A stretch of DNA of 64,000 nucleotides from Kondoa subrosea (GCA_039545335.1 BCIN01000010.1:453804-517803); one strand, 5' to 3'; positions 3,628 to 51,631 are shown, counted from the stretch's first letter. Program-made: numbers and translations. The notes: generated from the sequence alone by a model not told the origin.

Positions 3628-3809
3628 CGCGTGGTATTGCTTGTTTGTAGCTTGCAAGAGCGTGTGTATGGATTGTCCCCGGTTGTCTGAGTTTCTTGGG
3701 AAGGTTCAGTCACTTCCTTGTTCTTTCTCAACGAGCGAGGTGTTGCGAATTTCTATTCTCTTTCTATCAAGGCTGGCCCTGCTCTACTAGATACATTTAC
3801 AATTGAAAA

Positions 3810-6358
3810 ATGGTATTCACACCTGTGCCCAAATCTCCAAGCGTCCTGGAGTGCGTAGTCCGTGCACGACAAAAAATCTGGCCCGAGCTGACGCTTCACG
3901 TATTTAGCAACGCAGACAGTACGTACCCTCTGCTATGATGTCTGTGAACATGTACTGACTTGTTCCGCTCACTCCGCCAGTCAGAAATCCTAGCTCCTTC
4001 TTGTAAGCACTGTCTTCCTTTCCATGTTCCGTCTTCTTCATGCTTGGCAATGCAGTCAATGGGTCAAAAGCAACTTCCAGAGCTCCGTACTGGACGACAT
4101 CTATGGCCAAATGGCGACAATCATTTTGTGGTCGACAATGGTATCCTGCCTGCATTTGCTCACCGACAGAGACGTGACCATCTCATCAGCTATGCTCGGC
4201 GTTCTGGGAGGATTACTCGGTTTCGTTGTCTCGCTACGTACTTCCAGTGCCTACGAAAGGTATTGCGAAGGTCGTCGGGTCTGGTCTCAAGTCTTCCACT
4301 CTTCTCGATACCTCACTACTTTGATATGGCTACATATTCCCAACGTCGAGCCTCGGAAGGATGATGCACCTGAAGAGACTGCCGAAGAAAAGGAACATCG
4401 AGAGACGCACGATACTATCCGTTCACTCATCGAGAAACAATCCATGTTCAATCTCACCATAGCTTACGCCGTTGCTTTAAAACACTACTGTCGTTGCGAA
4501 TACGGGTTGTTCTACGAAGATCTCTACCCGCTGGTCAGCTTGTGCGTTTCTGATTCATAGATTTTACGACTTCAACTGATTTTATGTTATCAGTTTACCG
4601 AAACACAGTTTCACTTCAGACGAGAAATCGGAACTATTACCACTTTGGCAAAACAGCCACAATGGAACGGGCGCTATCTTCACTCCTGCATTCACTCCAA
4701 ACGTTTCACAATTCGATCCTTCTTCCGTTAACAGCGAAGCGACTTATGTCAACACAACCTATGTAACTTCGCCCAGTACATCAAGAAGTGATCTAGGTCT
4801 TGGAAACTTGAGCTCTTCCGTTGGATCGTCAATGATGAAAGAGAAGGAGCCTGGAATTGTCATCACTGAACCAGGCATGGTGCACGAGAAGAACAAAGCT
4901 CGACCAGGTCATATCAGAAGAGCTTCTACTACTCTGGAACTAATGCCTTCGAGAATGCCTCCGTGAGTCACCTCTGCGGATCTTTCAGATATAGATTAAA
5001 AAAGCGAAACAGTAAACGTACCTTGACTTATTATCTACCGATTATTGGTTGGGTCAGAACATTCGTCTACATGCTCTTCACTTGCACTACTCGAGAAGAT
5101 CGCAAGAAATCAGACGAGGAAACGGTTGAAGGAAGAGCTGAGAGAGCGAAATTGACTTCAAACAGTATGCTGTCTACAGCCTTTCTCACCTTGCTGCCAT
5201 ACTGAAAGATATCGGCTATGTACAGTCCCTTTGAGCTTGACTACGTTCATGCAAGGATACATTGCTTCTCTTACTCGTCGTAAGGTGAGCTGTTACGGCT
5301 GTTTAGGGAAAAATACTTTTACTGATCCGGAAGCATAGCTGGTTGACGGTGTCATTCTCGGCCGTATGTCTACTCTAGTAGCCTTTACTCAGTATAGCTC
5401 ACATTTTCCGCAGAATGCATGGGCGCTTTGGATGGATTGCAGTGAGTCGACATCACTTCGGTGCAGAATGTCCCTGAATATTCACTGAACAGAACCTCAT
5501 TCACTGCTCTGGAACGCTTGATCAACTCTGCTTTACCTTTCGCCTATCAACTTCATCTGAAGATGACCGTCGTAAGTATTCGATCACTTGTTTTTTAATC
5601 AATTCGTTGATGTATATGTGCGTAACACAGTGGATCTTCATGTTAATTTTACCCTTTCAGATTGTCGAGAATCTCGGTTGGTATACTATTCTCGTTACTG
5701 CTATCACTGCCTTCTTCTACTTTGGTTAGTCGGAATCTGGGCGTTCTAATCGCACAACTTATCGACCTGAATTACCAACAACAGGTTTTGTCGAGATTGG
5801 AGTCGAGATTGAGTATGTGGAGAGTCTCTTCAATACAATAGCCATTCGCTCACGTCTATGCTTCTTCGCAGAAATCCGTTCGACTTGTACGGCTTCCCTA
5901 TCTTCAGATAGCAGACTTTTACTGATCAGATATATAGCGGAAAAAACGATCTGGTAAGGCCGCCGCTACATAAGTATGGTCCCCCTTATTGACTGTCTTC
6001 TTTGCAGGACTTGGACAGCTTCTGCAGTCTGAGTGAGTTGCGTCTTTGCGGATGATAGACTACACTAATCATCATTGCACAGTTGCCAAAGAAGGTCTGC
6101 CGTTGTTTATTTTGACTTGTTTGAGTACTCATGTTCGCGGTAGTCACTGAGATCACTGCGCATCCCGCTGAATTAGACTTCTGGTCGTATGGGCACGAAT
6201 CTGCAAACACTCCTTTCTCGCTTGCCGGGGATCACAGAAGTGTTCCAGAACTTCTACGTGATGCTGCACGAGCCGAAGAAACTGGCAGCCACAATGATGT
6301 ATTGAATTCCATCAAGGGTAGCATTGCTGGTCAGTCGTTGATTGACACCGCTGCATGA
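3810..6358 (+). CDS. Bestrophin-like / UPF0187 membrane anion-channel family protein (many exons)
   Basis: LGVLGGLLGFVVSLRTSSAYERYCEGRRVW, LPFAYQLHL and the spliced GFVEIGVEIENPF..GKNDLDLD motif. Confidence 0.85.
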
Positions 6359-6911
6359 TCTTCACCTGAAATATTACACAGGTCACTTCAGACAAGCAAA
6401 CTCCAAGGCTTTGCTCGAGAACGTGAGTCCTAATGGTGCTACCATGTAGTCGAGGCTGACTTTGCTTTGCAGTCTAGGAAGTATCGCCAGTAAGTTATAT
6501 CTGGTCGGAAGGGCTTGATGCTCATTCTTTCTCCGCGCAGCCGTATCAAGAAGGCACCACGCAAAAAGGTCAATGTCGACTATGCCGATCGAGACGAGTA
6601 AGTCCTCAGCAAGCGAACAAAATGTAAAGGACAATCATCAAAATAATGACTCGCCGGACGAGTTCATACATATATTCATACACTCATTCGTCATATGCAT
6701 TATTATTCTCTAGCATTAGATTAGACATTGAGTAGCATACAAACAAAACGTCCATTAGGCAGAACAGTAAGAAATTCTTTCACAAGGCATAAAGATAGTA
6801 CAATGAAATTCCCGACGACCAGCGAATGAAACTTCCTCTAAAGCGATTCTCCATAATTTATTGACAAATTTGCTATCAACCCGACGTGTCTTCTCCACGA
6901 CAGTCCAATCT

Positions 6912-26796: not shown

Positions 26797-27931
26797 TTAG
26801 ACAGATGCAGCTTGTTGTAACTCTTCGATTTCCTTATTTAGCGACTGCAACTTTTCCTCCAGACTGTTCTTCAGTTCCTCTTTAGCTTCCTTCTTTCCCT
26901 GAATGATTTGTTTCGTGCTCCTAGTATCAAATAAACCAGCCAACAACTCATGATTAACTTTATATCTTTTCCAAATCAATTCAGAATTCATCATCATCAT
27001 TTGATCCAAAGCATCTCCATCGTTTTTAGAAATAGGCATTAATGGGCCTAAATCAACAGCTGATTCTTGTTGTTGAGCTACTGCAAGTCTGTTTCGTTGT
27101 GAATTAAGTGCTGGAGGAGGAGGACCACGATTAGCGTTGGGTAACATTGGCGGAGGTCTAGATTTGACGACAGCCGCTGGTTGTAAACGTTGAAGTTGAG
27201 ATGGGTGTACGGAAGATGGAATGGGTTGATTACTTTGAGATTGCTGCATTTGCTTCATTTGCTGCTGTTGTTGCTGTTGTTGCTGTTGTCTTTGCTGAAT
27301 CTCTTTGAGGGGGCAGAATGTACGATGAGGGAGAGTAGGAAGAGGATAAGATCGAATAGGTTGCTGTAGTAAGGTAAAATGAGCAGTCATACGAAGCTGT
27401 GCTCGTAGAAATATACCTTTGCCCATTCCTCCGGCGTTTGTACTTGATGGTCCGCATTCTCATTCTTTGTATAATAGACAAAGACGAAGCTCTATATCGA
27501 AAAGATAAGCAGTGAAATCAATACACAGAAGGCTCACGCACTGGATGACCACCGCGTAAAAGTCTCCAACGATAGCGCACCCATTTCAAATACGGCTCAG
27601 ACCCTTCTGAAGGCTCATTTACACTCTTCGGAGGCAAGAAACCATAAGCACAAATAGAAGTTTCCAGCTCGTACTGCGATTGAGAATCTCTCGAAACTTG
27701 CTCAGCAGCGCCAAATCTGAGACCATCAACCAAGGGAGCAGAAGGATTCATCTGGAATTGAATGAAAGCTGTACCAGCAGGCGGCCGATCAAGCAGAATG
27801 AGACTGAAATTGAGATCTTGATTCTGAGCTGTTGCTGCCAGCATTCGGACAATTGTGTCTGTAGGAGGTACAGAAGGCATAGGTGATAAGTAGTGTACAG
27901 CTACGATCTCTCTGGGATCTGCTTGCTGCAT
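26797..27931 (-). CDS. SSR4: SWI/SNF and RSC complex subunit Ssr4-like (DUF1750), with a polyQ tract
   Basis: LDRPPAGT, DGLRF..AE, GFLP, RYRWRL..GGHP, FVYY and PIRSYPLP. Confidence 0.7.
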
Positions 27932-28015
27932 GTTTTGGGTATCAGATATGAGAGAATATTGGTTTAAAGGCAAGGTCGACCTCGAGCGGTTGGTCTGGAG
28001 AGCTCGCCTTCATCA

Positions 28016-31000
28016 ATGGCATATACCCCAGTCAGGAGAGATGATGAGCCTGCTTCGCCTGCTGGAGACTACCCAGGCTCAGAAACGTGAGGAGCAGTCA
28101 TAGATAGAGAGCTCGCGCATGTATTGATAAATATTTCATAGCGAAAACGAAGCAAAGGGATGGGGTCTCGATAATGAAGACGACGATATCGAGCTTCAAG
28201 ATTACGACGCGCCAGAAAAGGGACAAGATGAGAAGACTTCATTGGCTGGAGTGAATGCATTCTCGCTGCATCCTGATGATCCTTCTCTACCTGCTCTCAG
28301 CTTGCGAGTTCTTGTAATTGGATTGCTGTTATGCTGTGTTGGAAGCGCTGTCAGCCAGCTCTTCTACTTCAAGAGCAATGCTCCTTCCTTCAGCTCCTTC
28401 TTTGTCATCTTGATCAGCTTGCCTATGGGGAATCTTGCAGCAAAGTATATGCCCGACAAATCGATCAACCTGTTTGGACTTGACGTACCGCTCAATCCTG
28501 GCAAGTTTAGCATGAAGGAGCATGTCTTGACTACAATATTGGCAACTTCTGGAGCAGAGGCAGCTTATGCAGGAGATATCGTAGCAATTCAGTTGTTGTA
28601 CTATCATCAAGACATCGGGTTTGTCTCTGGCACTTCGATATAAAGCCGTCTCACGTTACATCCAGACCTATTGGCGGTATCCTCCTACTTCTTACGACTC
28701 AACTCATTGGCTTCGGTCTAGCTGGCTTGGTGTACAACATATTAGTGAAGCCCAGCATAATGGTTTGGCCTTCCTCAATCCCAATTGTTTCGCTTTTCGA
28801 CACATTACACGGTGGAGCCAATACATTGACGCAAAAAAGATTACGATTCTTCACTGCTGCTTTCCTTGCAATCTTCGCGTGGCAATTCATTCCCGGTATC
28901 TGGGCACCTGGTTTGACTTCTTTTGCAACACTTTGTGTGATCAATAACTCTTCGTCAGCTATGAGAGTACTTGGTTCGGGTTACACTGGATTTGGGATAG
29001 GCAGTCTTAGTTTAGATTGGTCGGTCATCGGTAGTTCTGGAGGATTGATCGTACCGTGTATGTCTATACATGCGGCTGCTTAATGACAGATGAGCTCACA
29101 TGAAGTATTTAGTCTGGGCATCTGTGAAGTAAGCTTCGTATGAGCCACGACGTAGTCATTTAACCGCCAGGCAGTTTCTTTGTCGGCATTGGCGGAATGT
29201 GAGTGATCGACCTATTGATTAGCGTTGACTATCTGACACTGGATACAGGATGTACATTATCGGTCCAGCTTTACACTTTAGCAATTTCTGGAACAGTCTG
29301 TCATTCCCCGCTCCAATAAGCGCCCATCTCTATAATTCGGACTACGATGCATTCAACGTCTCAAAAGTGGTAACTCCCGATCTTCATTTAGATGTAGAAG
29401 CGTTCGAACAAGCGAAACCCAGTATGTTCATTTCTGGGCATCTTATTCTTCACTTGTATACATTTACTCATTCGTTTCTGTGCAATTTCATCAAAAAAGT
29501 CTTGCTCGCTCCATTCTTCGCTTTGACTTACGGTATTTCATTCGCCGTCCTTTCAGCCACTATCGTTACTGTTCTCTTATGGCACAAAGACACCATCTTC
29601 TCTGCTTTCAGCGGTAAAGAAGTACAAAGCGATGAGAATACAAGGATTGTGGAACAAAAGTGAGCCCAAATAGCGCAATTGAAAGTAATAGAAGCTGATA
29701 CAGTGCAGTTACGGATTGGTTCCCTTCCGCTGGTACTTGATTACATTTGGCAGCATGGTTCTTCTGGCAACCTATGTTGTTGTTGCCTATCCTCTACAAT
29801 TACCCGTTTGGGGATTGTTTTTGTCCATCTTGGTTGCAGCGGTTTTTCTAGTGTAAGTCATGAGGCTTCTCCGCGGTCTTCATCTGAACGAGGTTCAGTC
29901 CGTGTGGGATTATCGCTGGTATTACAGACACCCGAATAGGACTGAATGTCATTACGGAAGTGAGTGCTGAGCGCTGAGCGACTAAGTAATGCTGTTCTGA
30001 CGCTTCGATAGTTCGTTGCTGGCTATCTTCTGCCTGGTTTGCCGATTGCCAATGTAACATTCAAATGCGTGCGTTCATCTGACTCGTCATCTCTACTGGC
30101 GAACTGATCGAATTCCTTTACAGTGTGAGTCAGGCTTCTAGTATCATGTTCTACTTCCTCTCAACCCAAACAGACGGTTATATGGCCATGAATCAAGCTC
30201 TGGTATGTCTGATTACTAGAAAAAGTGATCTAGCTGACCCTGCAATTAGGCATTGGCAGCTGATCTGAAGCTTGGTCTATATCTTCGAGTCAGCTAAGCG
30301 GATAGCGGCAGTGCTAAAGCTCATTCAGTTCTCTTCAGATTCCACCCAAACATATGTTCTTCTGCCAGGCATTGGGCACAGCGGTCGGTTCAGTAGTCAA
30401 TTTCTCGCTCATAAAAGGAATCGTTGCGTCAAAGAGAGACTACCTTGATGGTACAGTAGAAGGTTGGTGACTGCTTTGTGATCAACTACTTGCTCATTGG
30501 CCTCTTCTAGATCCTACCGGTCAATATACGGGCAGAGCACCTCAAATCTTCTATTCCGCCAGCGTGATATGGGTAATTCTGTCGAATCCAAGCTGTTCGA
30601 ATACTACTCACTTTCCGCTAGGGTTTGGTAGGACCTGCACAATTCTTCTCGGGGCAATACCGCGTGCTATATTGGGGTTTCCTGATAGGCGCATTCCTGC
30701 CTCTCATACCGTGGCTTATCTGGAAGAGATATCGTGAGCTCGTTCTTGCTGTTGGAACTTCTTTTGAATATGGTGCAGCTGCCTTTGGCAAGCGCTTTTC
30801 TCTGGACAAAATCAACTTTCCTAGTACGCTTTGAGCAAGAGATTCATCATATGCTGACCTTTGCTTTAGTCATTCTGCACGGTGCAATAGGTGATTCTCA
30901 CCCTCAGGCATTGTTACATAGCTCATGTATGAATAACAGGGCCGCCACAGACTCCCTCGAATGTCGTATTAGTTGGTCTGATGTCTGCCATCGCTTCTCA

Positions 31001-31224
31001 ATACTGGGCGATACGATACAAGAAGGAGTGGTTCACAAAGTACAACTGTAAGTGTGCATTGCTCTCATTGCTCGGGCTCATTCGCGTTCATAGATGTATT
31101 ATCATCTGCGCTGGATGCAGGTACAAGTATTAACGCCTTAGTAATTTACGCCTTTGGCCTTTCGAGTTTAGCATTTGCAAATTGGTTTAACGACCCAATA
31201 GATACAGAACATTGTAGAAGTTAA
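28016..31224 (+). CDS. OPT family oligopeptide transporter (about 20 introns)
   Basis: DDPSLPALSLR, LNPGKFSMKEH, P.MVWP, GLNVITE, ANVTFKCYGY, DLKLGLYLRIPPK and KYNYVLSSALDAG. Confidence 0.95.
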
Positions 31225-31288: not shown

Positions 31289-34249
31289 TTAAGTTGCTTT
31301 AGTGGTAGACTTGCGCGCCAAAGCCTCTGCTTCTTCATCAGGTAAACCAAGAGACGATTCCCTTTGCTTCTTCCTCGGCGCCCAATGGCCCGCAAATGCC
31401 TTGAAAGGATTACTTGGTCTACTTGAGCCGTCCTCCTCCTCGTCGTCATCTGTTGGACCTCGTGTAGGGAATGGTAGTGGCACATCTCTGTGAATCAGCG
31501 CGACAGTTCAGACTAGCCACCGATAGAAAAGAAAGAAAGACTTGCCGAGTGATACGAAATGCGTCCACGTTACCTGTTCGTATACATTAGGTGAATCAAA
31601 CATGCAGAATGCAAGAGAAGTACCGATGTGTTCTGATTCGAGACGGAAGAATGACCACATCCACCTTCGGAACTGTATAACAGTGCTCAACGCAAGATAC
31701 GTCGTGTCTGAGTTCAGCAACGCACGACCTCTAGTACTATATAATCGTTTAGCTATGACGCAAGTGCGACAACCGAAGTTACGACTTACAGCCCACAGTG
31801 AAGCCGCGCACAGGGATGCTCCAGTTCTCAGCAGGAATGACATATAATATCCAAGAGTAGCGCAAGAAGACGTCCAGCACTATAGCGATATAGTAGCTGT
31901 AAATTGCACCTTTGTACGCCAGACCGTCTCGTAGAAGAAAATGCTTGGCATGTGGTTTGAACAAATTCCAATCCATAAGCAGATCCCACGCAAGCTGACA
32001 CGGGATCAGCGAGAGACGAATTGACGTGATGTATCACAAACCGAGTAAGTCGAGTTGATGATGGCGAAAACGATAAAAACGGCCAAAGATACACCGCTCC
32101 CGGGCGAGCCTTTCATTCGCCAATCAAAGTAGAGCCAGAAATACAGTATTGTCATGCAGTATTTGCCGAAATTCAGCAAATGGATATAGAAGTAATCGCT
32201 ATCGCTATAACGCCTTAGAGATTGAGCAGCACGAATCATTGAGGGTATGGATGCCAAGATCGGAGAAGCCCAGGTATTGTTTGTTGAGCACTGAGGTGGT
32301 ACATTATTAAAATTCCGATGATCTTTAGTCACAGATCAATGCCTGTACTCCCTGGAGAGCTCGTTGAGCCACGCACATGCACAGATGAAATAGCCAATAT
32401 TATAGAACATGTATTGCTGAGAAACCAGTACTACCAGCTTGTTGTAAATGGAAATGAATCAGAGCAGGAAGAAGTAAACGCGTACAATCGCCAAAGTAGA
32501 AGTCAGTGAACTCTACCCTTACTAGACCAAAAGCGAAAACCCTTGCAAATCGACTGATTAACCACCAGCGAGCATGAAGAGAGAAACCGGGAAATGGATT
32601 CAAGCATATAACGATTGTTACGATCAGGAAGACCATAGGCCAAGCATGAGGTGAAATATGGTCTGGCCAGAAATTACTGAAGGATAACCATAAGCTGAGA
32701 CTGAGTAGGAAGAGGATTAGGGAAGGGAGTTCCAGGTATGCGTGGAAATCGTTCGTATGTCGTTCAGGGAGACCCATGATGAGAGGGTAATTGATGCGAG
32801 CATCTAGTGATGAGAGTTAGAGGACACATGTATATAAATTAAGAAGACATACGATTCCAAGCCAGCAGATTCACGGCCAGGAGATTTGCGAAAAGCACTG
32901 GAAGAAAGAAAGCTCCGTACAGCTGCAGAAGCGCTGGCCACTCCGGTATTGCAGCTCGGGTTTCGTTTTGAAAGCTTTTGACCAAAGCTTCAATGAAGGG
33001 AAACAGTGCCAAGCCGAGCAGGAAACCTGATGCGCCGGAGGAGCGATCTGCATCACACATTAATTTAAGGCTACGGCTAGAGTTATTGGCATACAATACG
33101 TTTTACTTCTACCTTCGCTACGTAGCTTAGCAAGAGCCACTTTTCTTGAGCCATTGCTGAAGTGATGTGTATACAAGTCTTCTACCAAACTTGTCACTTC
33201 TTCCAATTTGGTTGAAACAGCAAAAGAAGAGGTTCCGACTTTCTGCAAGAATTGTTCACTACAAGGAATCCAGGTTGCCTTTTCGTACTTCTTTAGAATC
33301 TTGCTGAAGCCCGTCTGATTCAGTGTACGATAGCTCCTCAATATCGCAAGAAGCTTATGTAGTTCGTATAGAGCATTTTTAAGCGACCGTTTTGCCGAAG
33401 AGTAGTGTTCTGGTTTGAGCTGGAATTCGCTCTGCAGTGGTGTTACGATGTGGGAGAAGATATTGATCACTTGTGGCGGTTTATGATCCTTTTTGTGGGC
33501 ACCTTCTTGCTGGAGGTTGCGCTAGAAAACCAGAAGATTAAAGTAAGAACATAAGATCGGAAGTAAAGACGCCAACATGTCTTTCAAGATCGTCTAGCTG
33601 TTTACGAATTGCCAGAGCTCTTTCTGCCGCTTCGCCTTCTCGCTCGAGGTAGAACGCATTGACTTTAGACAGCTGTTACATTGTTCAGATGCTGTTTCAG
33701 CTCAATGACAAAGCTGTCACTGACTTCTTGATCCAGCACATCAAAGAATTTCTTCTCTTCAGAGGTCAATTTAGGCAAGAGTTCTTCAAGAGGTATATTA
33801 GGTCTGTATCGCCAATGTGTTTTCGAAGAGCCAGGTTTACGGCGTTTCAGATTCGGAGGACTAGCTTTGTTACCTTCCAGGCTCGATACGAGCGAAGTAG
33901 CTGTATCATTTCTTCGTAATCGAGGTTCAGTGTTAGATCTGAAAGAAGCAGGAGATGCCGTCCTGTTATCGGTAAGTACAGAGTGATCTTTGAAAGATTG
34001 ACGTGAAGTTGCGCGACTAGTGGTAGCTTGAGCACTACTCCCTAATTCCTTATCGTTCTCTTGATCGCCTTCATTTGCTTCAGCTTCTCGTTGATCCTCT
34101 AAATCACTTGAATCTGGTGAAACTGTTTCAGCCAATCCTTCCTCGCTAGCAACTGCTTTCTTGATCAGCTTCTTGAGTCGTCTGTAGTCCAAATAGGCTC
34201 TCTGCCATTCAGGCTGAGCGTGTTCCTTCAGCAACCGCCCAAATTTCAT
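31289..34249 (-). CDS. SYG1: SPX-EXS domain protein (Syg1/XPR1 phosphate-exporter family)
   Basis: SPX motifs MKFG...PEW..AYLDY..LKKLIK and LNQTGFSKILKKYEK. EXS motifs VEFTDFYFGD, MDW.L and RRWMWSFFRLESEH. Confidence 0.93.
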
Positions 34250-44570: not shown

Positions 44571-45985
44571 ATGAAGACCCGCTCTCTGCTATTAGCTTTG
44601 GCTATCGGCTCCTCTGTATCTGCCACTGGCGAGTTCTTTCACCTTGACCCTTAAAGATTTTGCTGATTCACTCGGTAGAGGAGAAGCGCGGTCTTATTGA
44701 GGCTGCAGTTGCTGTGATCAAATTGGGCAGGCTTCAACCTTTCTGCGCGTCCTATCTACAGACGTTGAAGCCAACAGCAACGTGGGTCCATATCTTACCT
44801 CTGAGTCGCTGATGACAGACGAGCGATGTCTATCATTACAGATCTACAGTCATTTTGCCTTCCACTTCGGTCGTCAGCACAAGTACTTCCACCATAATCG
44901 TTCCCACTACTGTCTATCAAGTCAGTGCCGTTTGATCTCTGTACGTCTATATGTCTGATCAGATGCAATAGACACAAACAACTGTCAGCGTAGAGACTGA
45001 TTACACTACAGTCGTGCGTAAACGATCGCCCCGTTGAGCCCTGTCTAAGATGATCTTATTATCGTACAGCAAAGCACCACCACAGTTGTTCAAAATTCAT
45101 TTGAAAAACGAGGGTCCATTCCAAATTGTCCTCTTGGTTTGCGATTATTCGCAGAGAATGTCATTCAAGCCGCTTGTGTTTCTGCTTTGAATGTCCCTTC
45201 ACCGTCACGTACAGCTCTTGCAACCTCAATTTCCACAATCAAAGCAACTGCAAGCGCGCTCGAAACTTCGATTCAACCCACGACCAACGTAGTCACTGAA
45301 ACTCAAGCAAGTACGACTTTATCAACTCAGCTGGCGGTCCAAACTGTCAGTATTTTGTCGGGAGAACCGCAAAACCCTTCGTTCGAATCCGGATCATTGG
45401 CTCCTTGTTAGTCATGAGTGGTCTGCGGTGAATTGCCTAATACTATGCGACAGGGTCTTTCCAAAAGAATGCGCCAACCTATCAAATCGTTACCGGAGCT
45501 AGCGACGCCGCAGACGGCAATAGCTACCTGTCAGTGTGCTATTCTTTCGCGTTGGGACATCACTAACGCATCTTGCCAGACGCATCGTTCAAAACACTGG
45601 GCCATACAGTTATTCCGGACCTGGTACTTGTGGAACTTCATACGTCACAACCTCAGCACCAGCTACCGAAGGTCAACTCTACAATATCAAGCTTTCTTAC
45701 CGCTCCATAATTGCACCTGGCTCTCAAGATACCTATGCCGGTGGACTTCAAATTCTAGGATCCAATGGTTGGCAGAGCTGCAATTCGCCCAGTTCAGACT
45801 GGCAAGAGTGCTCATATTCGAGTCTGCCGTATGAAAATAGCTTGGGCCCCTTTATTCAGGTTCAGTGGTAAGTCCTTTGTCGGTGTTAATCGAGACATAC
45901 TGACGAATCATGTAGCTGTGCGGGCTACTACACCGATCCAACCTTCTGTGATATAGACAATTTGGTTGTTACGCCTGCTTTGTAA
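44571..45985 (+). CDS. Secreted Ser/Thr-rich protein with a C-terminal carbohydrate-binding-like domain
   Basis: Signal MKTRSLLLALAIGSSVSA, a KR site, an FCASYL motif, a Thr-rich stalk, and QNPSFESGSLAPW...C.IDN.VV typical of CBM-like beta-sandwiches. Confidence 0.72.
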
Positions 45986-50574: not shown

Positions 50575-51631
50575 TTAGGGCTCTGCACCCTCTTTTAATC
50601 TCGATAACAGAACTGATGTACATGTTCTCAAACCCGATAATTCTTTCCCACCTTCTTCAGCAAAACCTACTCCTGCCCATCGAATTTTTTGCTGCCAATC
50701 TACCAAGTATAGATAGCCTACATGCTTATTCAGCATCCCCAGTGGCTATGAGATGAAATGAGCAAGGTATTACCATTAAGAGAAGAAATGGAACTCACTT
50801 CTTTGAGCAATTCGATGTTTTGATTTGTCAGAAGATAATTCTCATGCTGTTCTAAAGGAACTTGTTTCCTCAGTGATGATAGGTACATTGAAACAAGCCA
50901 TGATTTGAGTAAGTTGTCTTGTAAATTGATCTGTCCGAACGACGATCAAGCTTGAAAGACAATTTCATTGAAAGGAAGAACTTACATTGACTATTTGGAA
51001 AAGAGGTTCAGAAGCTTGATCTTTTGCTATTGTCGGTAAGAAAGAATCGACATGTTCCTTTCCGCCTCAGCCTTAGCTCGAACAAATGGTCAACGGAGAA
51101 ACAATTTACTACAGAGATTTTGGTATTTAGAACAGCAACAAGGGAAACTTTATCTTTGAGTAGATCAGCAGTGTTCTTAGTCTCCTTATTCGCCAACGAG
51201 ATTCCTTGTATAGCAGGAAAATAGAGTGCTTTCTAGCGACACCTCACATTTTGATCAGTCCCCTCTGGTCCTCGGCAAGCGAGATTTATACGCACATCTG
51301 ATCGAATGACTGTTTCTGGAGCGATCCATAGTTTTCCTCCAGTATGCGACAATTGGCTCAAATCCTCAAAGTAAGATTTCGATAATTGCTTTGTTAAAAT
51401 CTTGCGCTCCTGTTTCCTTCCTTCTGAATCCAACAATCTTGACTTGACTGAAGGTTGTGGAGCTACTGAACTGCTGGGAGGTGTAGAAATACCTAAAGGT
51501 CGAGGTAAATAAGGTGGTCCTGCTATATTTGCTGACTTGATAGGTTTGGATTCGGTTGCGACATGTCTTGCACTAGGACTTGTCACGAGGATAGGCTCCA
51601 ACAGTCTTGCTCTCTTTGCCAAATTTTGCAT
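50575..51631 (-). CDS. ATP10: Mitochondrial ATP synthase assembly factor Atp10
   Basis: L.RPLG...PP, YF.DL......GKLWIAP, ALYFP and QINLQDNLLK.WL; presequence-like N-terminus. Confidence 0.88.

Follow-up and report, generated by a model that had tools for sequence, protein, structure and literature searches.

The 64 kb stretch of DNA analyzed here (the window) is eukaryotic, has about 45% G+C and carries a gene for an oligopeptide transporter of the OPT family, for which we built a 20-exon model by coordinates (Table 1). The model contains 19 introns ranging from 45 to 78 nt and has a coding sequence of 2247 nt, that is, 748 residues followed by a single terminal stop (TAA). Its translation clearly belongs to the OPT family (Pfam PF03169), with exon 3 and exon 2 matching the profile at 83.8 and 78.5 bits, respectively, against a gathering cut-off of 25.8. 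A word-index search with the 130 residues of exon 3 found 34 proteins, the best matches being OPT proteins of the Microbotryomycetes (Rhodotorula, Sporobolomyces and Microbotryum; 53-61% identity over exon 3), followed by those of Kwoniella and Cryptococcus at about 50% identity. When the spliced model was compared by blastp, 30 OPT proteins of basidiomycetes proved colinear with residues 1-746 of the 748, with identities of 45-56%. Moreover, 17 of the 19 exon junctions were free of indels against 27 homologues, and of the two that do show an indel one lies in the variable N-terminus and the other in a variable loop. The full-length alignment, the single terminal stop and the indel-free junctions together indicate that the gene is intact outside the site discussed below (T30124), and from its family membership the product is predicted to transport peptides.

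Just upstream of the OPT gene, on the opposite strand, we observed two long open frames (26797-27459 and 27518-28009), one of which encodes about 10 Gln in a row; for both frames a Pfam search at an E-value cut-off of 0.01 came back empty.

The region around T30124

Table 1. Coordinates of the OPT gene and of its features, counted from the first base of the window
Feature	Position	Strand	Description	Basis or remark
OPT oligopeptide transporter gene	28016-31224	+	20 exons	model built by coordinates
Micro-exon	29113-29128	+	16 nt	no indel against homologues
Micro-exon	29175-29198	+	24 nt, adjacent to the 16-nt micro-exon	no indel against homologues
Exon 10	30012-30068	+	57 nt, encodes FVAGYLLPGLPIANVTFKC; ends TTC AAA TGC, last codon (TGC) complete	read directly
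Intron 10	30069-30123	+	55 nt, GTGCGT...ACAG, phase 0 behind the Cys codon; sequence GTGCGT...CTTTACAG	read directly; position, phase and donor hexamer shared with locus L001
Branch-site candidate, intron 10	30104-30108	+	CTGAT, its A 16 nt from the 3' end	motif match only
Proposed one-base exon 11	30124	+	T, first base of the Tyr codon T/AC	only solution of 76 giving FKCYGYM
Intron 11	30125-30173	+	49 nt, GTGAGT...AACAG, phase 1 within the Tyr codon; sequence GTGAGT...CCAAACAG	read directly; donor score 9.2
Weak branch-site candidate, intron 11	30160-30165	+	CTCAAC, about 9-10 nt from the 3' end	outside the strict CTNAY motif
Exon 12	30174-30202	+	29 nt, AC completes the Tyr codon, then GYMAMNQAL; starts ACGGTTATATG	read directly
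Micro-exon	30870-30890	+	21 nt	no indel against homologues

The first-pass annotation of this DNA had described, between a TGC codon and the bases ACGGT, a 55-nt intron, a lone T at 30124 and a 49-nt intron, a layout that the coordinates bear out. T30124 is flanked on both sides by complete GT...AG introns of usual length, and their sizes fit those of the other 17 introns of the gene (45-78 nt, with 16 of the 17 at 55 nt or less). Intron 11 has no strict CTNAY branch-site motif, a point against the one-base exon; in all, 5 of the gene's 19 introns are without one.

We enumerated all one- and two-intron solutions with GT/GC-AG ends and introns of at least 35 nt across 30012-30202. This gave 76 solutions that keep the frame without a stop, and FKCYGYM was obtained from the pair 30069-30123 plus 30125-30173 only. 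A single intron 30069-30173 does not appear in this list, and its removal therefore shifts the frame, as the first-pass annotation had stated.

Homologous proteins give a similar picture. We collected 94 proteins of at least 450 residues through a word search and a full HMMER scan of representatives, and aligned them to a family HMM built on 31 full-length homologues. The region is present in 81 of the 94, and in 79 of these the spacing across F-K-x-Y-G-Y-M is exactly seven residues, with a spacing of six or eight residues found in none of the 81; the residue count in this motif, which had been proposed as a check on OPT orthologues, thus comes out in favor of the lone T. In the column that corresponds to the split codon (column 4), 58 of the 81 have Tyr and another 12 have Phe. 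The two exceptions are Microbotryum predictions (P0015 and P0016) with 8-9 extra residues between FKVY and YM and with the Gly replaced. They also hold a 24-residue insertion exactly at the site of OPT intron 9, and because of this coincidence they look mis-annotated; judging from the sequences, their insertions look like translated intron, and their gene models probably fail at the same spot. Scored against the HMM, the model with the one-base exon reaches 1003.1 bits, compared with 994.9 for a model that uses a donor at 30073, 992.9 for one with a GC-AG intron and 985.3 for one with an acceptor at 30133, a lead of 8-18 bits over these three rival splicings.

Splice-site matrices were trained on the other 17 introns of the OPT gene, which is a small set from a single gene. 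With these the donor at 30125 falls within the range of the training introns (5.5-9.5) and within the top 0.29% of plus-strand GT sites in the window. The donor at 30069 (GTGCGT) scores 4.2, under all 17 training donors, which counts against the one-base exon; this low-scoring hexamer is nevertheless in use at the related locus L001 (see below). Acceptor scores are near equal (4.4 at 30123, 4.3 at 30133 and 4.2 at 30173), and since 30123 and 30133 cannot be separated in this way we left these scores out of the argument.

In terms of chance, the 64 kb window holds 3 copies of the pattern YAG-N-GTRAGT when both strands are counted, where 1.88 would be expected; this is about 1.5e-5 per position. 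About 24 positions within the combined intron would divide it into parts of no less than 40 nt each, and the lone base has to be a T as well, so that from the window counts we estimate the chance of an accidental AG-T-GTRAGT arrangement in this intron at about 1e-4. A much looser scan of the whole window, for two splice-like units 1-5 bases apart, gave 3 matches on the plus and 6 on the minus strand, compared with 2 and 2 in reversed-sequence controls and a mean of 2.04 (maximum 6) in 50 shuffles; this pattern by itself is close to chance. Other matches of the loose scan lie at 44941-45069 and 3851-3980 on the plus strand and at 27492-27580, 50613-50721, 4370-4467, 31673-31796 and 3888-3972 on the minus strand. 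The flanking frames of five of these gave no clear coding context, and the matches were dropped.

The DNA letters themselves appear sound. Two re-assemblies (two read sets from one sample, word depth 138 and 54) reproduced 29800-30500 with 0 differences and 0 gaps; the sample may be the source of the window, and the agreement therefore excludes an assembly slip, though not a strain-specific mutation.

Intron positions at related OPT loci

A scan of metagenomes returned 593 pattern matches, from which 5 loci were confirmed (L001 to L005), one of them (L002) stopping short of the site and another (L005) ending just past it. Intron sizes estimated from tblastn at these loci are rough only, since tblastn ran through introns that are in frame. 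L001, which is 84% identical to a Sporobolomyces protein, has a single intron of 156 nt (6640-6795) at the same phase-0 position behind the Cys codon. Its donor is likewise GTGCGT, and its acceptor is followed by TACGG. The sole other clean gap between tblastn segments of L001 is 61 nt, and its 156-nt intron is unusually long. In L004 (about 2530-2581) and L005 (about 3806-3857) a 55-nt intron lies one codon upstream, between the K and the V of FKVFGYM, and L003 is intronless at the site homologous to T30124. Over about its last 45 bases (about 3861-3906) L005 diverges from L004; this contig end resembles what we take to be sequencing-adapter sequence, and it is probably an artefact.

Comparison of these versions with the window reveals that within a stretch of 10 bases the intron site differs from locus to locus: none in L003, after K in L004 and L005, after C in L001, and both after C and inside Y in the window. 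The first-pass annotation had suggested comparing intron positions among OPT orthologues, and by this comparison they vary among related fungi. The arrangement with a one-base exon is present in none of the three related gene versions that span the site (L001; L004 and L005; L003), but none of these loci is closely related, with 50-84% identity to the proteins of other species, and for this reason the arrangement would be lineage-specific and is not thereby false.

Alternative readings of the site

Taken as a whole, the splice enumeration, the spacing in homologues, the HMM scores and the splice-site scores support the earlier claim that the lone T is needed to give FKC-Y-GYM: without T30124 both the frame and a conserved residue would be lost, and none of the other splice solutions performs equally well. 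We consider it likely, with good though not full confidence, that in this intron-rich basidiomycete, whose nearest proteins are those of Microbotryomycetes (50-61% identity), an intact OPT gene has T30124 as a constitutive one-base exon. It would be flanked by two U2-type introns, each with a donor, a branch region and an acceptor of its own. The mRNA would then probably be joined as 30068-30124-30174 (TGC + T + AC GGT), reading Phe-Lys-Cys-Tyr-Gly-Tyr-Met, and it is against this reading that the alternatives have to be weighed.

The first-pass annotation had overlooked one frame-keeping alternative with canonical ends, and its list of rivals was incomplete in this respect. A GT-AG intron of 65 nt (30069-30133) would leave 30134-30173 as coding sequence, with ASSIMFYFLSTQTD in place of the Tyr and 13 residues added. 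This splice leaves an open frame with no stop, its length is within the 45-78 nt range of the gene, and its acceptor can hardly be told from that of intron 10 (4.3 vs 4.4); an automatic gene caller would probably pick it. However, of the four models it fares worst against the HMM (985.3 vs 1003.1 bits), and it places an insertion where 79 of the 81 homologues have none, with loss of a residue that is aromatic (Tyr or Phe) in 70 of the 81. The spliceosome would moreover have to pass over two AGs (30123 and 30129) downstream of the CTGAT branch-site candidate, and a donor within the top 0.29%, one base past the first of these AGs, would be left unexplained. As the main splice form we find it improbable; it could also occur as a minor isoform. 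The alternative that the first-pass annotation did name is a single 107-nt GC-AG intron (30067-30173), which would shorten the motif by one residue to FKYGYM. Introns with such ends form a known minor class, and this one keeps the frame without a stop, but the six-residue motif it produces occurs in 0 of the 81 homologues, the model falls 10.2 bits below that with the one-base exon, and its donor (GCGTGC) scores 2.3, under all 17 training donors. An intron of 107 nt would also exceed every other in the gene (45-78 nt), and L001 splices from a GT donor one codon boundary later, all of which makes this reading very improbable. A 101-nt GT-AG intron from a donor at 30073 to 30173 likewise retains the frame without a stop and its HMM score is second best (994.9 bits), yet it would give FKCVHGYM with one extra residue, and eight residues are found here in 0 of the 81 homologues; at -2.5 its donor (GTTCAT) is equaled or bettered by 79% of plus-strand GT sites, and it too would be longer than any other intron of the gene. 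We regard this last splice as scarcely credible.

A different kind of explanation is that the gene is broken. Here 30069-30173 would be one old intron, homologous to the 156-nt intron of L001, behind whose acceptor a T has been lost, so that the locus would be either a pseudogene with a recent frameshift or a null allele peculiar to the strain, with the inner AG-T-GTGAGT a coincidence. The window does read CAG/ACGG where L001 has CAG/TACGG, just as a one-base deletion would look, and the combined length of 105 nt resembles that of a long ancestral intron. Several points speak against this. Elsewhere the gene is undamaged, with one terminal stop, 19 clean junctions and a product of 748 residues, and both halves are of typical intron size for this gene. 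The probability that an inner arrangement with the right base arises by chance is estimated at about 1e-4, and two re-assemblies with 0 differences exclude an assembly slip. We thus give the broken gene only a small chance.

Origin, order of removal and known one-base exons

If T30124 is indeed an exon, the question is how the arrangement arose. The upstream phase-0 intron is probably old, because it is common to the window and the Sporobolomyces-like locus L001, and from this comparison of sequences the second splice pair is probably specific to the lineage of the window. At the acceptor the difference between the window and L001 is exactly the missing T. The second pair could have come from the gain of an intron one base downstream of intron 10, or from the loss of the acceptor T together with recruitment of the inner AG-T-GT; the difference in T fits base loss and intron gain equally well, with a young frameshift less likely. 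Introns 10 and 11 were also compared by blastn-short with the 64 kb window alone, giving self-matches and chance matches of 9-17 nt, and similar copies of either intron, as the idea of introners would have it, were not found within the 64 kb window.

As for the splicing itself, for which the first-pass annotation had suggested pure intron definition with ordered, recursive-like removal, we propose that introns 10 and 11 would each be recognized across themselves (intron definition) and would be removed successively and not simultaneously, since the AG of intron 10 (30122-30123) sits at -3/-2 of the intron 11 donor, within its -3 to +6 footprint. Either order of removal would keep the signals of the other intron whole; with intron 11 retained the frame meets a TAG at 30139-30141. 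It is conceivable, if rather doubtful, that with the intron 10 AG inside the U1 footprint of intron 11 two spliceosomes cannot sit side by side, which would make the order strict. In the same tentative vein, the locus may record the birth of a one-base exon, in which the first base of the Tyr codon is now taken from about 50 nt upstream, within the former intron, and in which removal is strictly ordered. Ordered removal with intron definition has already been proposed by Guo and Liu for a one-base exon of Arabidopsis (PMC4674806), and our model for T30124 is thus not new; nor does T30124 open a new kind of mechanism.

The case is of practical consequence, since standard gene callers cannot place a one-base exon and would here give an OPT protein that is frameshifted, truncated or carries an insertion; an insertion of this kind is seen at the same spot in two database proteins from Microbotryum. 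Recognizing the T30124 exon would give a correct transporter sequence. It would also add a case from a basidiomycete yeast, with a pyrimidine exon, to the short list of one-base exons, and the window locus and L001 form a tractable pair in which to study the origin of one-base exons and the order in which abutting introns are spliced out. Should the order be strict, the locus would offer a natural substrate of about 105 nt for the minimal spacing from 3' to 5' splice site in a basidiomycete yeast.

One-base exons had been called extremely rare in the first-pass annotation, and this holds, though fungal cases have been published (PMC12940212, PMC12230235). Among the papers returned by a full-text search of a limited library with a limited set of terms, none was listed with a one-base exon in an OPT gene or in Pucciniomycotina.

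The closest parallel is the one-base exon of the Fusarium P450 gene CYP621A, which has support from SRA reads (Nelson and Syed 2026, PMC12940212). Similar to T30124, it lies in a fungal nuclear gene, where a lone base between AG and GT joins exons that are out of phase within a strongly conserved motif; taken together, the two introns are roughly double the normal intron length, and detection came through comparison with homologues (PMC12940212). The origin put forward by the authors, in which a base is lost near a splice boundary and a cryptic inner exon rescues the gene, fits the comparison of the window with L001 (PMC12940212). However, the Fusarium exon is a G (AG-G-GT) in the middle of a Gly codon, and it is kept in at least 20 orthologues and backed by SRA reads (PMC12940212). 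The proposed OPT exon is a T at the first base of a Tyr codon in a basidiomycete transporter gene; it is predicted from sequence and is present in 0 of the 3 related gene versions.

The one-base exon A333 of Arabidopsis APC11 was proven with GFP fusions and RT-PCR (Guo and Liu 2015, PMC4674806). There too a single base is constitutively spliced between two GT-AG introns, and it is reported to make no difference to splicing whether this base is a purine or a pyrimidine; APC11 is however a plant gene with experimental proof, and its flanking introns belong to a different splicing background (PMC4674806). Nearer in phylogeny is Coprinopsis cinerea, a basidiomycete with short introns, whose long-read annotation lists thirteen 1-nt exons and in which ultra-short internal exons avert premature stops and are missed by standard annotation (PMC12230235). 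It differs from the present case in being an Agaricomycete, and in that its exons form a genome-wide list (PMC12230235).

In the stwintrons and one-nucleotide intron shifts of the Pezizomycotina, two splicing reactions likewise fall within a short stretch that interrupts a conserved peptide, and intron positions are off by a few bases among orthologues (PMC5587772). In a stwintron, however, the inner intron breaks a splice signal of the outer one and so forces the order, whereas the OPT introns are complete with a coding base between them. A stwintron reading of 30069-30173 was considered and rejected: the GT and AG ends of both introns are intact and unchanged when either is removed, and because neither intron interrupts the signals of the other the OPT locus is not a stwintron. 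Recursive splicing at AG/GT ratchet points (zero-length exons) is mentioned in the discussion of such exons in PMC4674806. Ratchet points resemble the present site in having a donor right behind an acceptor, with removal proceeding stepwise. They occur, however, in very long introns and contribute no base to the message, whereas introns 10 and 11 measure about 50 nt each and a single base is kept in the predicted mRNA.
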